The notes under the pieces: model-generated
What the model was told of the DNA's origin: nothing
Seen by the model: the letters and a program-made list of their open reading frames with translations, nothing else
The model's database searches: none
Virus record (IMG/VR): IMGVR_UViG_2531839146_000012
Source of the DNA: a virus
Lineage: Duplodnaviria; Heunggongvirae; Uroviricota; Caudoviricetes
Strand: one strand, 5' to 3'
DNA: 9,403 nt
Program-made: the position numbers and the translations under genes
Part shown: positions 1 through 9,403 of the stretch, one piece after another
How the letters are laid out: every line of letters begins with the position of its first letter
Numbering within the stretch: the first letter of the stretch is position 1

Positions 1-395
<395 letters not shown>

Positions 396-404
396 ATCAC
401 CAGT

Positions 405-449
405 AGGCGCATAACACATCCAGCGATCAAAGATGTGTTTATGCGCCTG
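405..449. other. Long inverted repeat / stem-loop between the two convergent small ORFs
   Basis: AGGCGCATAACACATC (405-420) pairs with GATGTGTTTATGCGCCT (433-449) across an 11-12 nt loop. No flanking T-run on either strand, so not a canonical intrinsic terminator. Confidence 0.4.
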
Positions 450-461
450 ATAGTGAAATTA

Positions 462-620
462 TTAAAGTCGTTTAGTTAACATCGCCATTGCTTGAGCAAT
501 AATTGCAACAGCGTCCATCTCTTCACTGGAAGCGATGCAAATGCGGTAACTAATAGCCACAATGAATACATCAATAACGAGAAAGTGAATAGTGTGAAGA
601 TGTTTTGAAAGTAAATGCAT
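462..620 (-). CDS. Small hydrophobic hypothetical protein (52 aa), below the ORF-track cutoff
   Basis: Minus-strand ATG (620-618) with GGAGG 5 nt upstream (complement of CCTCC 626-630); translation MHLLSKHLHTIHFLVIDVFIVAISYRICIASSEEMDAVAIIAQAMAMLTKRL; stop at 464-462. One predicted hydrophobic helix. Confidence 0.3.
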   Translation of the reverse strand: MHLLSKHLHTIHFLVIDVFIVAISYRICIASSEEMDAVAIIAQAMAMLTKRL

Positions 621-713
621 AACTTCCTCCGGTTTTGGGATAGGAGGATTAGAACATGCATTAAATGATGTTGCAAGAATGGCAATTTACCCTAATAGTC
701 TACTATTCACCTC

Positions 714-744
714 AATCTACGTCAACCAATATTTGATGTAGATT
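714..744. promoter_or_regulatory. Near-perfect 12-bp inverted repeat (AATCTACGTCAA-N7-TTGATGTAGATT), operator-like
   Basis: Arms at 714-725 and 733-744 with one mismatch, read directly from the sequence. Confidence 0.3.
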
Positions 745-1014
745 TAATTTTCTTTTAAAAACAATATGTTGTTATTTGTTGAATTTTGGGGTTAGGTTGT
801 TTTTTGAACGTTTTCATCAAGTGTAAAGATACGTTTAGCCTTCATAGTGAGTTCAGTTACTGTCTTTTTCTCTGAAATCGGCGCAAACGTGATCATCGCT
901 TGAGGTTGCTGCTCTTACTTCTCAAATTGTGATGGAGAACGATAAAGGTTAGAGGGCACTTTTATTTTTTTAAGCAAGTGTATAGCATAAGAATAATCTA
1001 AAAAGGGAGGTTAT

Positions 1015-1566
1015 ATGCGCAGGTCTGCATTTGTGAGGATGATGATTTTTACAACGTTGTTTGTAGGGGGAACTTCTACCGCAGTTGCTAAAAACTGCAA
1101 AAAAGGAATACCTTGTGGTAACTCGTGTATAGCTGTTGGTAAGACGTGCCGGATTGGCTCTTATGCCCCTTCATCTTATAAAAATCATTCATACTCTTAT
1201 CCTTCATCCTCTATTCGAAGCTCGCAATCAAATAATTCACGAAAAACTGAAGGAGTGAAAACGACTCCTGCTGCCAAAAATTATCTTTGCCAATACTCTA
1301 TTGCATCAATCGAAAACGGACGTTTAGGGGCATTACGTGTTCAGGGATACGCACAAGTAACTTTATATGCAGATAGCTTCAAGGCTAACAGATTAAATGG
1401 AACATATTTGATATCGCCAAAACTGAATGCTAACGGCAAGTTTATGATGGCAGATGATAAAAGCAAGGTTTATGCTTATGATTCTTGGCTATTAAATTTT
1501 GCAATAAGCGATCGTATCACAAGAACGACAGAACAATGGGATCGATGTAAGCTCAATCAAAAATAA
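1015..1566 (+). CDS. Secreted cysteine-rich hypothetical protein (183 aa) with Sec-type signal peptide
   Basis: GGAGG-containing RBS (1005-1010) before ATG 1015. N-terminus MRRSAFVRMMIFTTLFVGGTSTAVA looks like a signal peptide (basic n-region, hydrophobic core, AVA cleavage motif), followed by a 4-Cys cluster CKKGIPCGNSCIAVGKTC, a Ser/Tyr-rich linker and a C-terminal domain with two more Cys. Confidence 0.75.
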   Translation: MRRSAFVRMMIFTTLFVGGTSTAVAKNCKKGIPCGNSCIAVGKTCRIGSYAPSSYKNHSYSYPSSSIRSSQSNNSRKTEGVKTTPAAKNYLCQYSIASIENGRLGALRVQGYAQVTLYADSFKANRLNGTYLISPKLNANGKFMMADDKSKVYAYDSWLLNFAISDRITRTTEQWDRCKLNQK

Positions 1567-1584
1567 CAGTTAGAGAAGCTCTTG

Positions 1585-1641
1585 TAGAGGCATTATTGAG
1601 TTATTGGTTTTAATATTTTTGTGCCTCTATGGGCTTTTTTT
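1585..1641 (+). terminator. Putative terminator region after the secreted-protein gene
   Basis: TAGAGGCA (1585-1592) pairs with TGCCTCTA (1622-1629), followed by GGGC and a 7-T run (1635-1641). The loop is long, so the structure is non-canonical. Confidence 0.35.
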
Positions 1642-1798
1642 GCCTTTTTGCAAAGTAGGAGAGAGCACAGGAATCGTTAAAATTAATTATTGGGGTATTT
1701 AAGGTTATTTTCAGGTGGTTTAAGGGTATTAAACTTGATTTAATTGATTAAAATATAAACAGATAGTCCTGTATCTTATTGATTTATAAGGTTATTTT

Positions 1799-1855
1799 TA
1801 AATAAAGGTAAATAAAAAATAAATAGCCATAAATAGCTATAAATACATCTAAATA
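1799..1855. repeat. Six TAAATA motifs at 10-11 bp (helical) phasing
   Basis: TAAATA starts at 1799, 1809, 1820, 1830, 1840 and 1850. Confidence 0.6.
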
Positions 1856-2275
1856 CCTTTATCCCTTCCCTTATGGCTAGATTGCGAGAAGTGCTTAACG
1901 CGATTTTCAGCGCCCCCCGATCTGGAAAATCCAGAATCCCCAAATATCAGCAAGGAATTTTCTTGCGTAATCAACATCGTTTTTACCTATTAAATCATCA
2001 CACAGAAAGCCTTTCTGTAATGTCTCTCACTAAACTTTCACTAAACACGAGAATGATCGGTTTTATGTCGGATCAGATGCTAGAAACAGCACCACGTCTC
2101 ACAAGGGCTGTAAGCGATGAAACCAGTGTTTATGCGGGTGCAGGTCAAAATATGGGCCAAAATCCATTTAACATAATAATCGTAATATGCACTAAGGAAC
2201 ACATAGAACGCCTTGAATTGATGTATCAGGGGAAAAGTGATGGATTTTTTACGTAGGAGCACGAGAGGGCTTCTG

Positions 2276-2303
2276 TTGACTTTTGTGTGCTATGAAATAT
2301 AAT
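2276..2303 (+). promoter_or_regulatory. Putative sigma70 promoter firing into the repeat region
   Basis: -35 TTGACT (2276-2281), 16-bp spacer, -10 TATAAT (2298-2303). No ORF follows. Confidence 0.4.
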
Positions 2304-2337
2304 TAAAGGTTTTTTGTTTTTATCGTGTGATGTAGTG

Positions 2338-2780
2338 GATTACACAGGGGGATAGATTAAATGGTGTTCTGTTTATACAGGTTTATTTGTTAGATCAACA
2401 ATTTGGCATTTCTAAACAGATGTTTGAACGTTGCCAAATGTATTGACAACACAAGAAAAGGGCTTGCTATGCCACGCATTACACGGAATAAGGCTGTAAA
2501 AACAAAATAAATTTTAAAATTTGCACAAACGAGAAAACTCGTTCAGAAACAAGCAGAACAATTTTTAGCCAACAATTTCTGATGGTGCTCTGTAAACCGC
2601 ATTACACAAGGCTTTGCGAAAGTGATGTAAAAGTGAAGAAAGCTAACATTGCACTTTGAAGCCATTTTTCATTGGATTTTTTAGTAGGGAATTACACAGG
2701 GAATAGAGAGCATTATTCTATGATTTACACAGGGAATATAGGGGATTATGGCACACACATAGAAAGGCATTACACAGAGT
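2338..2780 (+). repeat. Dispersed direct repeats of G(C/G)ATTACAC(A/G)GG (iteron-like), six copies
   Basis: ATTACAC cores at 2339, 2478, 2601, 2691, 2769 and a TTTACAC variant at 2724, each preceded by G(G/C/A) and followed by (A/G)(G/A)G. Confidence 0.6.
2401..2439. promoter_or_regulatory. Nested imperfect palindrome ATTTGGCA...AAACA-GA-TGTTT...TGCCAAAT, operator-like
   Basis: Outer arms 2401-2408 and 2432-2439 are exact reverse complements; an inner palindrome AAACAGATGTTT lies between them. A TTGACA at 2443-2448 follows. Confidence 0.35.
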
Positions 2781-2808
2781 GAGTGCTATGTGATGATTGG
2801 TAGTAACG

Positions 2809-2843
2809 GTAGGTCACTGTGAGCTACCCCCACAGAATTCTGT
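2809..2843. repeat. Isolated copy of the 22-bp repeat core (GGTAGGTCACTGTGAGCTA) followed by CCCCC and a perfect 12-bp palindrome ACAGAATTCTGT
   Basis: 2809-2827 matches the tandem unit at 3028-3135; the palindrome at 2832-2843 is flanked by TACCCC on both sides. Confidence 0.5.
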
Positions 2844-2883
2844 TACCCCTATCAAGTCTGATACCCGATAAGTATAAATAACA

Positions 2884-2981
2884 CCTAGGAAATGATTTCC
2901 GATCTATTTAGGAAGTAACCTAGGAAGTGGTTTCCTACCTACTTAGGAAATGAGTTCCTACCTACCTAGGAAATGAGTTCC
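2884..2981. repeat. Four CCTAGG-GGAAAT-G-A(T/G)TTCC palindromic sites, the last three at 23-bp pitch
   Basis: GGAAATGATTTCC at 2888-2900 is a perfect odd-length palindrome; GGAAGTGGTTTCC at 2923-2935; GGAAATGAGTTCC at 2946-2958 and 2969-2981. Confidence 0.6.
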
Positions 2982-3006
2982 ACCAATACTATAATTAAAT
3001 AATATA

Positions 3007-3022
3007 AATAATATTCTTTATA
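3007..3022. repeat. Exact 16-bp direct repeat AATAATATTCTTTATA, left copy; right copy at 3184-3199
   Basis: Identical 16-mers at 3007-3022 and 3184-3199 bracket the 22-bp tandem array and its AT-rich flank; both continue with similar (C)TATAT sequence. Confidence 0.55.
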
Positions 3023-3027
3023 CTATA

Positions 3028-3135
3028 TAGCTCACTGTGAACTAGGGGGGGTAGTTCACTATGAGCTAGGGGGTAGGTCATAGTGAGCTAGGGGGTAGGT
3101 CATAGTGAGCTAGGGGGTAGGTCACTGTGAACTAC
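3028..3135. repeat. Five tandem 22-bp repeats (unit about TAGGTCATAGTGAGCTAGGGGG), each with a palindromic TCAC-N-GTGA core
   Basis: Units start near 3028, 3050, 3074, 3096 and 3118 with 22-bp period; the first unit is in inverted orientation (AGCTCACTGTGAACTAG). Followed by an AT-rich stretch with (TA)6 at about 3203-3214. Confidence 0.65.
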
Positions 3136-3324
3136 AATAAGACTATTAATAAAACTATATTAGATTATTAATTAGATCATAATAATAATATTCTTTATAT
3201 CTATATATATATATGATCTTTTGCCTTCCGGCGTTAGCTTCACTCTCTGGCAAGCAGCCTTACTCCGCTACCTTTCGGGCTTCGTGGCTGGCCCGTTCCG
3301 CTCACACCGAAAGCAAAGCGTTAC

Positions 3325-3366
3325 TTTCTTCGTGTAACTATCGTGGCGGTAACGCCCACGAAGAAA
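3325..3366 (+). other. Stable hairpin with GNRA-type tetraloop (GGCG-GTAA-CGCC) nested in a 9-bp outer stem
   Basis: TTTCTTCGTG (3325-3334) pairs with CACGAAGAAA (3357-3366); inner GGCGGTAACGCC at 3345-3356. Sits in a locally GC-richer segment (about 3216-3420). Confidence 0.35.
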
Positions 3367-3600
3367 TACTATTGCGCTGTGCGCAGTAAGAGTAATCACC
3401 TAACCAATCATACTGATTGCTTATGTGTTAACTCTCTCTACTCTTAATTACCCTCCTACATATAATAACTCTGTTATTCTCTGTAGTTGTGTAATTACTC
3501 GAAGAGAGAGCGGCTAAAGCTCAATTACACTCTGCTTTCCTCGTGTAATTTCACTAAGCCTCAATACAATTCCACTTCCTACTTCTGTAGTCGTGTAATT
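3330..3600 (-). repeat. Inverted copies of the ATTACAC motif (CGTGTAAT) plus a 20-bp direct repeat CT(C/T)CTGTAGT(T/C)GTGTAATT
   Basis: GTGTAAT at 3489-3495, 3543-3549 and 3593-3599; GTGTAAC variant at 3333-3339; one direct ATTACAC at 3524-3530. The 20-mers at 3479-3498 and 3582-3600 are near-identical. Confidence 0.5.
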
Positions 3601-3640
3601 GTTTTCGGTGGAAAAGCCAGAGGCGACACCGAAAGAGAAT

Positions 3641-3710
3641 TCTGATCTTATTAATCTTATCTATCTTAGTTAATCTTCTTACTTATCTTACTTTATCTAC
3701 TTTATTATTA
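3641..3710. repeat. Pyrimidine-rich cluster of TTATCT / ATCTT motifs (AGATAA on the minus strand)
   Basis: TTATCT at 3657-3662, 3683-3688 and 3693-3698, plus several ATCT variants. Confidence 0.4.
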
Positions 3711-4220
3711 ATAATAGCTTTATAAGCTCTCTGACGCAAGAAACAGCATTCAGGAAGGGAATCACCTTAGAAAAGGTGTTCTTTGCGTCATAATGTGTTT
3801 TATGAGGGATTCAGAGGTGTTTCATAACAGGAATGTATAGAGGATACTTTAGGTAATTAAAAATAAGGGGTCTAAATGCTTCTCTAACAGCATTAAGCAG
3901 GGTAGGGAATGGAAACGCATTGCCTACACATATAGGCTCACTACAGAGCTTTACAGAGCGTTTTATAAAGTGACTCTCTATCTTATATCTACCATCACCT
4001 TTTCATATACCTAACAAATACAAAATAAGCCCCTTAAATAAGCCTCTGGCGAGCTAAACAGCCATTAGATAAGGGAATGTATTGCTTTTATCAAAATCTC
4101 GTTAGAACGCGTTTTAGAGCGTTTTAGACAATAATGAAGAATAGCACTACACAGAAGAGCACGAATAGCTAAGAAAAAATGTAAGTACATGAAAAAGATC
4201 AGATTTTTTGTGAAAAGGTA

Positions 4221-4249
4221 TTGACAAATGTTTCTTTATATGTAATAAT
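4221..4249 (+). promoter_or_regulatory. Putative sigma70 promoter of the early operon
   Basis: -35 TTGACA (4221-4226), 17-bp spacer, extended -10 TGtAATAAT (4241-4249). It lies about 110 nt upstream of the first gene. Confidence 0.5.
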
Positions 4250-4359
4250 AGGTATTAGAGGGACAGAAAAACATTCTTCTCTAAATAATCAAAATCAATG
4301 CACTTTGAAGCCGTCAGGCTTGCAAGGTGTTTTTCTTTTAACTGAATAAGGAGTTTTTT

Positions 4360-4548
4360 ATGAAATGGTTTACCCCGGAGCACGTCATCTCGGCATTTAA
4401 AAAAGGTGAGCTTACACGCCATCAAGTAGTAATGAATCGTAATATGGCAAGGAGTCGAGGTTATCCAGAGCGAGCAGCTTGCTTCAATGAAGCACTCAAG
4501 ATTATTGATGAATTAAGAAAAAATGAAAAAGAATCTGAAACAGAGTAA
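4360..4548 (+). CDS. Small hypothetical protein (62 aa), first gene of the early operon
   Basis: AAGGAG RBS at 4348-4353, 6-nt spacer, ATG 4360. No family recognised. Confidence 0.6.
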   Translation: MKWFTPEHVISAFKKGELTRHQVVMNRNMARSRGYPERAACFNEALKIIDELRKNEKESETE

Positions 4549-4567
4549 AGAATAGAAGGAGAAAACT

Positions 4568-4735
4568 ATGAGCGAAACCAAGAAACCAATTCCGCGCACT
4601 TACCTACACGTTGACCCTGAAATCTTCAAGGTTTTATTTGCTGAAGCCAAGAAAAGGCAAATTATGGTCAGTGATTTGATGTTAGAAATCATTACTGAAG
4701 CAGCAGAGAACATCAAACAAAAAAAGGGTAAGTGA
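4568..4735 (+). CDS. Ribbon-helix-helix (CopG/Arc/MetJ-like) DNA-binding protein, 55 aa; below the ORF-track cutoff
   Basis: AAGGAG at 4555-4560, ATG 4568, stop TGA 4733-4735. Translation MSETKKPIPRTYLHVDPEIFKVLFAEAKKRQIMVSDLMLEIITEAAENIKQKKGK fits a beta-strand / helix / helix layout typical of RHH proteins. Confidence 0.55.
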   Translation: MSETKKPIPRTYLHVDPEIFKVLFAEAKKRQIMVSDLMLEIITEAAENIKQKKGK

Positions 4736-4786
4736 TCCTCATTCACTTTAGTAGCGCATTAAGCGTGATTTATAAGGAGATTTTTA

Positions 4787-5479
4787 ATGATTAATCAACT
4801 AACTTTTACAAAACACTATGACACGTTTGATAATGTATCAAAGATTTATTCTGATAAATTCCCTCAAGGAAAAGATTTAGATCTATTACATATTGTGCTT
4901 TATTTTCGATTCCTTAGTTATCAGGAAAACAACCTTAATTGTTATGAAAGTCACGAAACATTAGCTAAGATTTTTAAGTCTTCAGCGTCAACAATTAAAC
5001 GTAAGATAAACGATCTTAAAGAGATGGGATTATTAGAAACATCCCCACATCCTGATCCGTATATTTCATCTTTGATTTACAATGCTCTCCCTCTCACAGA
5101 TGCACATATTACTCCCCCAGGAGAATCATCACTCTCTGATCTTTCTGAGGCAGAAGAAGCACAGGAACAACCTAAAGGCCATAAACAGCCTTCTTTTGAT
5201 GTTCTTGATGATGATTGGGATGCGCCTTTACCGTGGGAGACGGAAGAAACACCTGTTTCATCAAGTGAAAAGGTAGCTAATGATAATGAGGAGGATGTGT
5301 TAGAGAATTTTGCCTCTCTTATCATCCGGGAGAAACACAGAAGAACAGGAGGATCATCATTTATAGACTTTGCAAATTCACTGGCTTATAGACACGGGCT
5401 AAAACGACCAAATGGTATTGAGGCATATTTTGCTAAGAAACATCCCAAAGTATATGAAGACTTTGATATTCCATTTTAA
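4787..5479 (+). CDS. Winged-HTH protein (HTH_36 / replisome-organizer-like N-domain), acidic linker, C-terminus ending EDFDIPF
   Basis: AAGGAG at 4774-4779, ATG 4787. The N-terminal ...CYESHETLAKIFKSSASTIKRKINDLKEMGLLE matches the usual winged-HTH pattern of phage/plasmid replication organizers. An acidic low-complexity linker (DDDWDAPLPWETEE...) follows; the last residues are YEDFDIPF, stop 5477-5479. Confidence 0.8.
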   Translation: MINQLTFTKHYDTFDNVSKIYSDKFPQGKDLDLLHIVLYFRFLSYQENNLNCYESHETLAKIFKSSASTIKRKINDLKEMGLLETSPHPDPYISSLIYNALPLTDAHITPPGESSLSDLSEAEEAQEQPKGHKQPSFDVLDDDWDAPLPWETEETPVSSSEKVANDNEEDVLENFASLIIREKHRRTGGSSFIDFANSLAYRHGLKRPNGIEAYFAKKHPKVYEDFDIPF

Positions 5480-6678: not shown

Positions 6679-6707
6679 TTGACATTTCATATATTGTATG
6701 TTAATAT
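6679..6707 (+). promoter_or_regulatory. Strong sigma70-like promoter ahead of the late genes
   Basis: -35 TTGACA (6679-6684), 17-bp spacer, -10 TAATAT (6702-6707). Confidence 0.6.
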
Positions 6708-6714
6708 AATTATA

Positions 6715-6932
6715 TAGGGTGATTATTTTTCCTTTATTGGTTCGATATTAAAAATTCTTCTTGTCGTTAAAGGGGAGTAAAATCTCCGCTCCCCGCTTCT
6801 CCTCCTTAAGTAATACTGTGTCATTATTACCTCTTTCCTTTGTTATGCATACATCTTGGAGTGTGCATAACATAGGGTAATTACATAGGTACAAGTTAAT
6901 AAAAGGCGGCTTTAAATGCTGCCTTTTATTTT
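6715..6932 (+). ncRNA. Candidate roughly 220-nt leader / small RNA from the promoter to the intrinsic terminator; no ORF
   Basis: Promoter at 6679-6707 and terminator at 6901-6932 with no ORF over 11 codons between them. Alternative hairpins GGGGAG...CTCC...CTCCCC (6772-6794) and a 9-bp stem TGTTATGCA / TGCATAACA (6841-6849 / 6865-6873). Confidence 0.35.
6901..6932 (+). terminator. Rho-independent terminator
   Basis: Stem AAGGCGGC (6903-6910) / GCTGCCTT (6918-6925, one G-U pair), loop TTTAAAT, then TTATTTT. Confidence 0.6.
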
Positions 6933-8916: not shown

Positions 8917-9183
8917 ATGTTAGAAATTAACACTTCTAAAATTAAGAACACAGTTACATTTAGTGTAGATAAAGACAGCTTGAAAAAAGCGAAAGACTCT
9001 ATTACAGGCTTAAAGGAATTCGCAGAAAACATCAAGCCAGCTAAATTAAGGTTTGATAATGTCACTAAAGGCTATAAGAAAGCACAAAGTGAAGTAGATA
9101 AGATTACTAAAAAGCAAGCCCAGGCTGATAAAGCTAATGCTAAAGCACAATTAGCCGCTCAACGTGTAGTTGCAAGAGGGTAA
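8917..9183 (+). pseudogene. Lys/Ala/Gln-rich (coiled-coil-like) protein gene truncated by the IS1 insertion
   Basis: AAGGGGA RBS, ATG 8917. The frame runs into the IS1 terminal inverted repeat starting at 9179, and the stop TAA (9181-9183) is supplied by the IS1 end GGTAATGAC. Translation ends ...AQLAAQRVVARG. Confidence 0.5.
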
Positions 9184-9403
9184 TGACTCCAACTTATTGA
9201 TAGTGTTTTATGTTCAGATAATGCCCGATGACTTTGTCATGCAGCTCCACCGATTTTGAGAACGACAGCGACTTCCGTCCCAGCCGTGCCAGGTGCTGCC
9301 TCAGATTCAGGTTATGCCGCTCAATTCGCTGCGTATATCGCTTGCTGATTACGTGCAGCTTTCCCTTCAGGCGGGATTCATACAGCGGCCAGCCATCCGT
9401 CAT
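9179..9403 (-). mobile_element. IS1 right end (partial; continues beyond the window)
   Basis: 9179 onward reads GGTAATGACTCCAACTTATTGATAGTGTTTTATGTTCAG..., the reverse complement of the canonical IS1 right terminus including the GGTAATGACTCCAACTTATTGAT inverted repeat. Confidence 0.9.
9194..9403 (-). CDS. insB: IS1 transposase InsB, C-terminal fragment
   Basis: Track [72 protein letters not shown] is the recognisable C-terminus of IS1 InsB; stop at 9196-9194. Confidence 0.9.

Follow-up and report, generated by a model that had tools for sequence, protein, structure and literature searches.

A 14-nt repeat joining a repeat hub to a replication-operon leader is most likely a coincidence of one haplotype, and its conserved copy forms an arm of a predicted terminator-like hairpin

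We have compared the two copies of an exact 14-nt repeat, TGCACTTTGAAGCC, that occurs on the + strand of a 9,403-nt stretch of viral DNA (the whole stretch analysed, hereafter the window) at 2650-2663 (copy 1) and at 4299-4312 (copy 2). In our judgement the two probably do not form a functional pair. Copy 2 would instead be an arm of a terminator or attenuator in the leader of a replication operon, and copy 1 would have come to match it through substitutions in one lineage. The features to which we refer are as follows.

2596-2642 (47 nt): nearly invariant non-coding block directly 5' of copy 1, CATTACACAAGG...GCGAAAGTGATGTAAAAGTGAAGAAAG
2650-2663, + strand: copy 1 of the 14-mer, apparently a lineage-specific variant of a conserved hub sequence with the family consensus TGCACTTTTAAGCT
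4221-4249, + strand: predicted sigma-70-type promoter, with TTGACA at 4221-4226, a 17-nt spacer, AATAAT at 4244-4249 and a TG upstream of the -10
4259-4282, + strand: small, weak 5' stem-loop of the predicted leader transcript, from the RNAfold minimum-free-energy structure
4299-4312, + strand: copy 2 of the 14-mer, of which 4300-4312 is the 5' arm of the leader hairpin
4300-4339, + strand: intrinsic-terminator-like element, with arm GCACTTTGAAGCC at 4300-4312, loop GTCA at 4313-4316, arm GGCTTGCAAGGTG at 4317-4329 and T-run TTTTTCTTTT at 4330-4339
4348-4362, + strand: RBS AAGGAG and ATG of the first operon gene, from the sequence and the ORF list, conserved in alignments
4360-5479, + strand: ORF1 (62 aa), ORF2 (55 aa) and ORF3 (230 aa), the first three genes behind the leader, from the ORF list
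6679-6932, + strand: second predicted promoter (TTGACA at 6679-6684, TAATAT at 6702-6707) with its own leader hairpin and T-run (6898-6932), upstream of the capsid operon

Both matches of the 14-bp repeat on which the original prediction was built were recovered exactly, and they are the only matches to TGCACTTTGAAGCC in the whole window when both strands are searched with up to two mismatches. The 14-mer has no internal symmetry. The match widens to 17 nt with one mismatch (2647-2663, CATTGCACTTTGAAGCC, versus 4296-4312, CAATGCACTTTGAAGCC), and gapped local alignment of the two copies gave no similarity beyond this 17-nt core. Chance levels were taken from dinucleotide-preserving shuffles (n = 400) of the 9.4-kb window. 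At least one exact direct 14-mer repeat of any sequence arose in 119 of the 400 whole-window shuffles (30%), with a mean of 0.34 per shuffle, which favors chance, an alternative that had been offered from the outset. When the non-coding region 1600-4360 (2.76 kb) was shuffled alone, an exact 14-mer repeat arose in 7 of 400 (1.75%), which makes one uncommon by chance there. For TGCACTTTGAAGCC itself 0.06 matches are expected, in what is a post hoc test. The similarity of the copies by local alignment has p = 0.002 with the window's haplotype and p = 0.155 with the majority haplotype. The repeat is real, yet within chance for a whole-window scan.

Copy 2 does lie, as had been claimed, between the early promoter (predicted at 4221-4249) and the first RBS. 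The predicted promoter agrees with 11 of 12 consensus positions and its -35 is invariant among relatives; a divergent subfamily has another, promoter-like -10 (TGGTAAAGT) at the same spacing. The hairpin that contains copy 2 is situated approximately 45-85 nt downstream of the predicted transcription start (near 4256) and just upstream of the operon RBS. Among the genes behind it, ORF3 is a replication-initiator-like HTH protein, matching HTH_36 (E = 2.9e-5; 24.2 bits, just under the Pfam cut-off of 25 bits) and phrog_270, 'replication initiation protein' (E = 1.9e-9). A scan of genome contigs with ORF3 added only one locus. ORF1, ORF2 and ORF4-6 were searched as antiterminators or regulators against Pfam, PHROGs, NCBIfam and PDB sequences with nothing significant, and a match of ORF1 to an 'RNA-binding regulator' was rejected at 14 bits, far under the 100-bit cut-off.

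The leader hairpin has 12 bp and one bulge (G4322), and folds alone at -17.5 kcal/mol. It is the dominant structure when the leader is folded with RNAfold (minimum free energy -24.5 kcal/mol, z = -2.3) and the only consensus structure that RNAalifold returned among the leaders; the stem-loop at 4259-4282 was not recovered by RNAalifold. A stable G+C-containing stem-loop and a U-rich tract directly 3' of the stem, by which terminators are recognized, are both present, and a simple terminator scan left the hairpin out because of its bulge. The predicted leader RNA of ~80 nt comprises the 5' stem-loop, a conserved A/U-rich single-stranded segment (CUCUAAAUAAUCAAAAU), the terminator hairpin and a U-tail.

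In 50 of 53 distinct leaders copy 2 varies only at its first base, which is T or C. Both arms of the hairpin are almost unchanged in ~50 distinct leaders, including those with a different promoter -10 and a different ORF1, and the T-run is nearly invariant in 36. Between the fixed arms the loop varies from 3 to 6 nt (GTCA, CAA, CAAGA, CAACAA). In the alignment 99.5% of cells are paired, versus 21-52% when the partner is slid. One leader type (L037/L102) has lost one A and one T, one base per arm, so that a whole pair is removed, and in another leader (L062) a G-C pair has turned into G-U. No pair is changed on both sides, the arms being invariant, and there is no covariation. Sequence identity, conservation pattern and predicted fold are direct results here; the evidence for the hairpin as a structure is thermodynamic, together with the variable loop and a single matched loss of a pair, and includes no classical covariation. 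Copy 2 appears to owe its conservation to its place as the 5' arm of this terminator-like hairpin, which by itself would be a sufficient explanation. The invariance of the arm sequences exceeds the need of a plain terminator and may point to a partner that recognizes their sequence. A search of the elements for further conserved copies or complements of either arm found none.

The leader of the capsid operon has the architecture of the first leader and a hairpin of unrelated sequence (-18.1 kcal/mol), and its promoter and hairpin are kept in 22 distinct sequences. This hairpin lies ~200 nt after the predicted promoter.

Copy 1 lies inside the repeat hub, as had also been claimed, where it is surrounded by ATTACAC boxes. 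The hub contains these boxes, 22-bp tandem repeats and CCTAGGAAATGAGTTCC repeats, all upstream of the initiator-like operon, and is presumed to be an origin or regulatory region. The 14-mer is not a repeated unit of the hub and occurs there once. It sits 1.65 kb upstream of copy 2 and 1.57 kb upstream of the operon promoter, outside the leader transcript. Variants of copy 1 were sampled through the block at 2596-2642, which served as an unbiased anchor: each of its columns is at least 70-90% conserved among 62 distinct sequences, its 26-nt core occurs in 22 viral and 65 metagenome stretches, and the block was found in 528 E. coli genomes. The exact form of copy 1 is present at 10 of the 90 sampled loci (7 of the 62 distinct sequences), and the haplotype of the window in 46 of the 528 carrier genomes, so that ~9-11% of carriers have it. 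APEC O1 (NC_008563) is among the carriers of the element, and strain 94-3024 (CP009106) shows the copy 1 haplotype of the window. More than 20 haplotypes, with indels and substitutions among them, occur at the site in the 90 loci. The site of copy 1 is not hypervariable: its columns are conserved, but toward a different consensus. This family consensus, TGCACTTTTAAGCT, is identical to copy 2 at 12 of 14 positions, and G2659 and C2663 of the window are minority alleles among the 62 distinct sequences. Every exact copy 1 carries a linked third substitution (GCCAT), and a 13/14 intermediate haplotype (TAAGCC) was seen at the site; together these fit one stepwise origin of the exact copy. Exact copy 1 seems to mark a single haplotype.

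Conservation of both copies in homologs had been proposed as a check on the original prediction. Copy 2 came through it and copy 1, as the same sequence, did not. Only one of the copies being conserved is essentially the outcome under which the prediction was to be given up, and its shared target site for a regulatory protein or sRNA is unsupported, the family consensus at copy 1 being different from copy 2. A pair of sites would be conserved as the same sequence in relatives, and the two copies are not. The exact match of copy 1 to copy 2 is most likely a lineage-specific coincidence and not a functional pair. The 12/14 resemblance at the homologous hub position persists family-wide, which leaves a slight chance of a weak link between the hub site and the leader.

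Several other readings of copy 1 were tried and rejected. Pairing of GGCTTTGCGAAAGTG (2609-2623) with copy 1 in a long-range hairpin is no better than shuffles (z = +0.68), and the variation of the 5' partner among relatives (GGCTTT, GGATTT, GGGTTT, GGCGCA) is not compensated. Copy 1 as a decayed terminator paralog, retaining the 5' arm and a TTTTTC run after deletion of the loop and 3' arm, was dropped since alignment gives the 17-nt core only. A 40-aa ORF on the minus strand (2543-2665), with an ATG overlapping copy 1, was dropped since the ATG is missing in most relatives (...AAGCTAC). Rfam, searched over the whole window with a permissive E-value, gave no match near either copy or in the hub; its sole result was a sub-threshold L20-leader match at the capsid-gene terminator.

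The likeliest role of the leader hairpin would be that of an intrinsic terminator acting as an attenuator. Activity of the predicted promoter, termination at the hairpin and some means of relieving it are our inferences. Most transcripts would then stop as an ~80-nt leader RNA, and expression of the replication genes would require leakage or a release from termination. The capsid operon would be laid out likewise, as promoter, leader and terminator. In the sub-lineage that includes the window, point substitutions would have turned TGCACTTTTAAGCT into the sequence of copy 2.

Both copies could instead be DNA sites of one regulatory protein, for example the HTH protein of ORF3 or the small ORF2, coupling the hub or origin to the promoter region of the replication operon. 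The two sites are on the same strand, in non-coding DNA, identical over 14 nt (or 17 nt with one mismatch), and the homologous hub position keeps a resemblance of 12-14 of 14 positions; the invariance of the hairpin arms in sequence would also suit a protein site. We nevertheless hold this to be extremely unlikely. Two bases of the family consensus at copy 1 are not those of copy 2, the site accommodates both indels and substitutions, and only about a tenth of carriers (the ~9-11% above) have the exact form. The 14-mer lacks the internal symmetry mentioned earlier, conservation around copy 2 reaches into the 3' arm and T-run as the hairpin explains, and the spacing of the arms varies with the loop, unlike that of a fixed-spacing DNA operator. 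Control by RNA-RNA pairing as in satellite P4, in which a hub transcript (antisense over copy 1, or GGCTTTGCGAAAGTG at 2609-2623) pairs with the 5' arm of the hairpin and alters termination, deserves as little credence. In its favor, termination would fail if copy 2, an arm of the predicted leader terminator, were masked; the stretch GGCTT...AAAGTG, which precedes copy 1, shows partial complementarity to the 14-mer; and short leader repeats with a complementary small RNA have their precedent in P4. The copies have the same sense, however, and pairing would need a hub transcript from the minus strand, for which a promoter scan found no promoter. Two mismatches would break the pairing in most relatives, the complement at 2609-2623 varies uncompensated, and shuffled sequence folds as well as the copy 1 region does. 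Neither a conserved complement of either arm elsewhere in the elements nor an Rfam match in the hub was found.

That the hairpin is real but mainly something other than an attenuator, either the 3' terminus of a short small RNA acting in trans or an element of mRNA stability or processing, is unlikely, although less so. The layout of the predicted ~80-nt leader, from stem-loop through CUCUAAAUAAUCAAAAU and terminator to U-tail, is typical of small RNAs, and arms more invariant than a terminator requires would fit. Such a role is compatible with attenuation and does not exclude it, and copy 1 would play no part here either. Most far-reaching, and very improbable in our estimate, is a scheme in which the leader hairpin is the recognition element of a sequence-specific switch, operated by an antiterminator protein or RNA, by which a thrW satellite of phi92-like phages, not described before, would start replication at helper infection. 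The hub site, 12/14 family-wide and 14/14 in the window's lineage, would then be a second, weaker binding site or a decoy for the same factor and would link origin activity to read-through of the attenuator.

The operon is part of a ~12-kb island integrated at thrW, which also contains the capsid gene and segments of phi92-like phage DNA. The DNA common to the island and phi92-like phages includes the terminal-repeat boundary of those phages, and the DNA of ORF2 is 100% identical to gene muut_153 of phage muut. The island looks like a phage satellite, and muut, a phi92-like phage, is a candidate helper. The whole genome of muut contains no 14-mer, hairpin, hub repeat or arm complement, and the leader had no BLAST match in 50,697 phage records; a site shared with the helper phage was rejected on these two results. 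The literature held nothing relevant on a satellite of phi92, Justusliebigvirus or phAPEC8 or on a thrW capsid satellite. As a coincidence of one haplotype, the 14-mer repeat gives no lead toward a regulatory site pair, and the real feature appears to be an ordinary intrinsic-terminator-like attenuator in the leader. That both operons begin with a predicted strong promoter and a terminator-like hairpin yields a testable idea, in which the element is silenced by attenuation and switched on by antitermination. The island, with its capsid gene, iteron hub and phi92-like DNA, is of more interest than the repeat.

As at iteron-type origins, copy 1 lies among hub repeats upstream of an operon for an initiator-like HTH protein; unlike an iteron, the 14-mer occurs once in the hub and is not a repeated unit. 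Immunity of satellite P4 relies on short repeats in a leader and a small RNA complementary to them, the CI RNA, whose seqB pairs with seqA and seqC of the replication-operon leader. The island resembles P4 in being a satellite-like element with a short repeat and apparent premature termination in a replication operon leader. The two P4 repeats are contained in the regulated transcript and can pair with the processed RNA, whereas copy 1 of the island is found 1.57 kb before the promoter, differs from copy 2 in most relatives and lacks a conserved complement. Repeats inside the transcript with a conserved complementary RNA segment, the mark of P4-type control, are thus not what the island has, and the likeness to P4 would be a functional analogy at most. 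In lambda PR'-tR', an intrinsic terminator serves as the leader attenuator, is overcome by Q antitermination and yields the short 6S leader RNA. Unlike lambda, the window has no identified Q-like or N-like antiterminator, and the first putative terminator of the island is much nearer its promoter (~+45 to +85). The island shares with PR'-tR' a predicted strong, constitutive-looking sigma-70 promoter followed by a stable stem-loop and U-tract before the first gene, and does so twice, the capsid operon repeating the promoter-hairpin layout. For the leader as a possible small RNA, the lambda 6S and Stx-phage StxS leader transcripts provide the comparison.

Exact copies of the 14-mer TGCACTTTGAAGCC lie at 2650-2663 (copy 1, in the hub, a non-coding repeat region upstream of the replication operon) and at 4299-4312 (copy 2, in the operon's leader), both on the + strand, as the original prediction had described. 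No further match was found in the window on either strand with up to two mismatches allowed, and the identity stretches to 17 nt with one mismatch. Although only 0.06 matches to this specific 14-mer are expected, the word was picked because it is repeated, so the fair test is the frequency of any exact direct 14-mer repeat. Such repeats were counted in 400 dinucleotide-preserving shuffles. At least one was present in 119 (30%) of the shuffles of the window (mean 0.34 per shuffle), which places the repeat within chance on a whole-window scan; for non-coding 1600-4360 alone (2.76 kb) the figure was 7 of 400. Though genuine as sequence, the repeat is most likely no biological feature but a one-haplotype coincidence between a conserved arm of a terminator-like hairpin and a hub sequence ancestrally resembling that arm at 12 of 14 positions.

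As judged from the predicted fold, copy 2 forms the 5' arm of a hairpin that resembles an intrinsic terminator, located in the replication operon leader, where we infer termination. The leader follows a promoter:

4221-4249, + strand: predicted sigma-70-type promoter (TTGACA, 17 nt, AATAAT, TG upstream), 11 of 12 consensus positions

Folding of the presumed leader (4256-4362) gave a single dominant hairpin in which GCACUUUGAAGCC pairs with GGCUUGCAAGGUG across the loop GUCA, leaving one G of the second arm bulged; on its own it folds at -17.5 kcal/mol. UUUUUCUUUU lies directly 3' of it, and AAGGAG and the ORF1 ATG follow 9-20 nt beyond the hairpin and T-run. Because of the bulge, a simple terminator scan did not list this hairpin. 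Relatives drawn from IMG/VR, metagenomes and one Escherichia genome provided a homologous leader in 80 loci, or 53 distinct sequences, among which the 13-mer arm GCACTTTGAAGCC is identical in all except three types. The arm is also kept in a subfamily with only 70-79% identity in flanking DNA, where the -10 region is different (TGGTAAAGT) and ORF1 has diverged (MKYFTPQD..., in place of MKWFTPEH...). In the L037/L102 leader type the 5' arm lacks one A and the 3' arm one T, so that a whole pair is gone; three other relatives show a G-C pair changed to G-U (L062), a rearranged bulge (L082) and one broken pair (L074). RNAalifold returned the hairpin as the only consensus structure of the aligned leaders; the T-run is nearly invariant. 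A pair count gave 99.5% of cells paired vs 21-52% when the partner was slid by 1-3 columns, and contained no two-sided change at any pair because the arms do not vary. The loop does vary in length (GTCA, CAA, CAAGA, CAACAA), which favours an RNA stem over a DNA operator whose half-sites are a fixed distance apart. The hairpin of the window's loop class is present in at least 413 complete E. coli genomes.

Copy 1 was sampled without bias through an invariant 26-mer just upstream, GCGAAAGTGATGTAAAAGTGAAGAAA. Its columns are reasonably conserved, but the consensus is TGCACTTTTAAGCT, from which the window departs through the minority alleles G2659 and C2663. More than 20 haplotypes, single-base indels among them, were found in 90 loci, and the exact 14-mer in 10 of these (7 of 62 distinct sequences). 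All exact forms share a third linked substitution (…GCCAT…), and a 13/14 intermediate (…TAAGCC…) also occurs, which fits a single stepwise origin. In complete E. coli genomes the invariant block adjoining copy 1 was found in 528, and the window's copy 1 haplotype in 46. The best local alignment of the copy 1 region to the leader reached p=0.002 for the window haplotype, and for the majority haplotype was no better than shuffles (p=0.155). The proposal that the copies are a functional pair, as a shared regulatory protein site or sRNA target, is not supported: only copy 2 is conserved as this sequence in related elements, essentially the outcome that the original prediction had named as its refutation. 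Beside it lies a conserved block:

2596-2642: 47-nt non-coding block CATTACACAAGG..GCGAAAGTGATGTAAAAGTGAAGAAAG, almost invariant even in subfamilies ~75% identical around it, with AAAGTGA twice, ~11 nt apart

Since the copies have the same sense, pairing with the leader would be possible only for a minus-strand hub transcript; a promoter scan found no promoter for one, and the duplex would carry two mismatches in most relatives. Folding of the copy 1 region was no more stable than that of shuffles, and Rfam gave nothing near either copy. In four full elements, neither arm had a further conserved copy or a conserved complement. The leader matched no phage record, and the complete genome of phage muut, which has 239 bp at 100% identity to the window, is without the 14-mer, the hairpin or any hub repeat. 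As a further candidate partner, the partly complementary stretch 2609-2623 was rejected, as it varies without compensation.

The window covers part of a ~12-kb island, which is a more interesting object than the repeat and of which no description was found in the searchable literature. It is cut on the left by what we take, from reading the sequence, to be an IS21-family element, and on the right by an annotated IS1; the integrase end is absent from the window. Intact islands adjoin tRNA-Thr (thrW) and carry, in order, ~3 kb without annotated genes, a small-gene operon, a major capsid gene (its protein matches PF03864), a 611-aa gene, a baseplate-like gene and the integrase. Island matches occur in ~720 of 5,426 complete E. 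coli genomes. Two metagenome loci (L042 and L045) are deletion copies in which ~3810/3850-5410 (window numbering) is missing, with the promoter, leader hairpin, ORF1, ORF2 and most of ORF3; the hub and downstream genes are kept. Part 215-1633 is carried by some relatives only, so its 183-aa ORF (1015-1566), with a signal-peptide-like N-terminus and a Cys-rich segment, is possibly cargo.

The non-coding region is a repeat hub of ATTACAC boxes, 22-bp tandem units and CCTAGGAAATGAGTTCC units, which we take to be an origin or regulatory region.

Features of the island fragment and hub
1-215: putative left IS21-family end, bounding the fragment
2338-2775, + strand: six ATTACAC boxes
2808-2831: one inverted copy of the 22-bp unit
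2883-2975: three or four CCTAGGAAATGAGTTCC units
3026-3135: five tandem 22-bp units
3321-3600, - strand: four or five ATTACAC boxes
4787-5479: ORF3, HTH_36 domain, matching phage replication-initiator families
9183-9403: right IS1, truncating the 611-aa gene

With its ATTACAC boxes flanking the 22-bp and CCTAGGAAATGAGTTCC units, the hub at 2330-3610 resembles an iteron origin that would serve the initiator-like ORF3 protein. Within this A+T-rich hub, 3210-3650 is G+C-richer and has several inverted repeats (e.g. 3432-3510); neither an Rfam match nor a convincing ORF was seen there, and it could be a structured RNA or a DNA structure.

Some island DNA is shared with phages. At 1876-1921, 40-46 nt are 93-97% identical to phi92-like (Justusliebigvirus) phages. 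The phi92 counterpart is 318-357 and the annotated left direct terminal repeat 1-343, so the shared stretch straddles the repeat's inner boundary. It may mimic a helper packaging or terminal-repeat signal, in which case the island would be a satellite of phi92-like phages. The muut identity lies at 4556-4794 (muut 81027-81265; ~97% to phage inny) and spans all of ORF2 (55 aa, = muut_153) and the ORF3 start; it implies that the island and these virulent phages have recently exchanged DNA. Inspection by eye suggests a small ribbon-helix-helix protein for ORF2, a reading for which no family or PDB hit was obtained. At 8918-9004, the start of the gene truncated by IS1 matches, with 85% identity across 87 nt, the 5' end of muut_231, a 660-aa hypothetical gene in the phage structural region.

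In the control that we propose for the replication operon, transcripts from the strong predicted promoter would mostly stop at the leader hairpin as an ~80-nt RNA, and expression of ORF1-3 and the downstream genes would need read-through. The short RNA could have a function of its own, and the invariance of both arms, stricter than a terminator needs, would be compatible with a partner that recognises their sequence. The capsid operon, with a leader of ~200 nt, has corresponding features:

6679-6707: predicted strong promoter, TTGACA/17 nt/TAATAT, conserved
6898-6932: leader hairpin and T-run, -18.1 kcal/mol, conserved, preceding the first gene (6995)

The two -10 boxes are directly followed by similar sequences (TATTAGAGGG and TATATAGGG). 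That both operons have a promoter-leader-terminator design suggests that the whole element is under antitermination or leaky attenuation control. Family and PDB sequence searches of the window's ORFs identified no antiterminator. Such control of the element would resemble that at lambda PR'-tR'.
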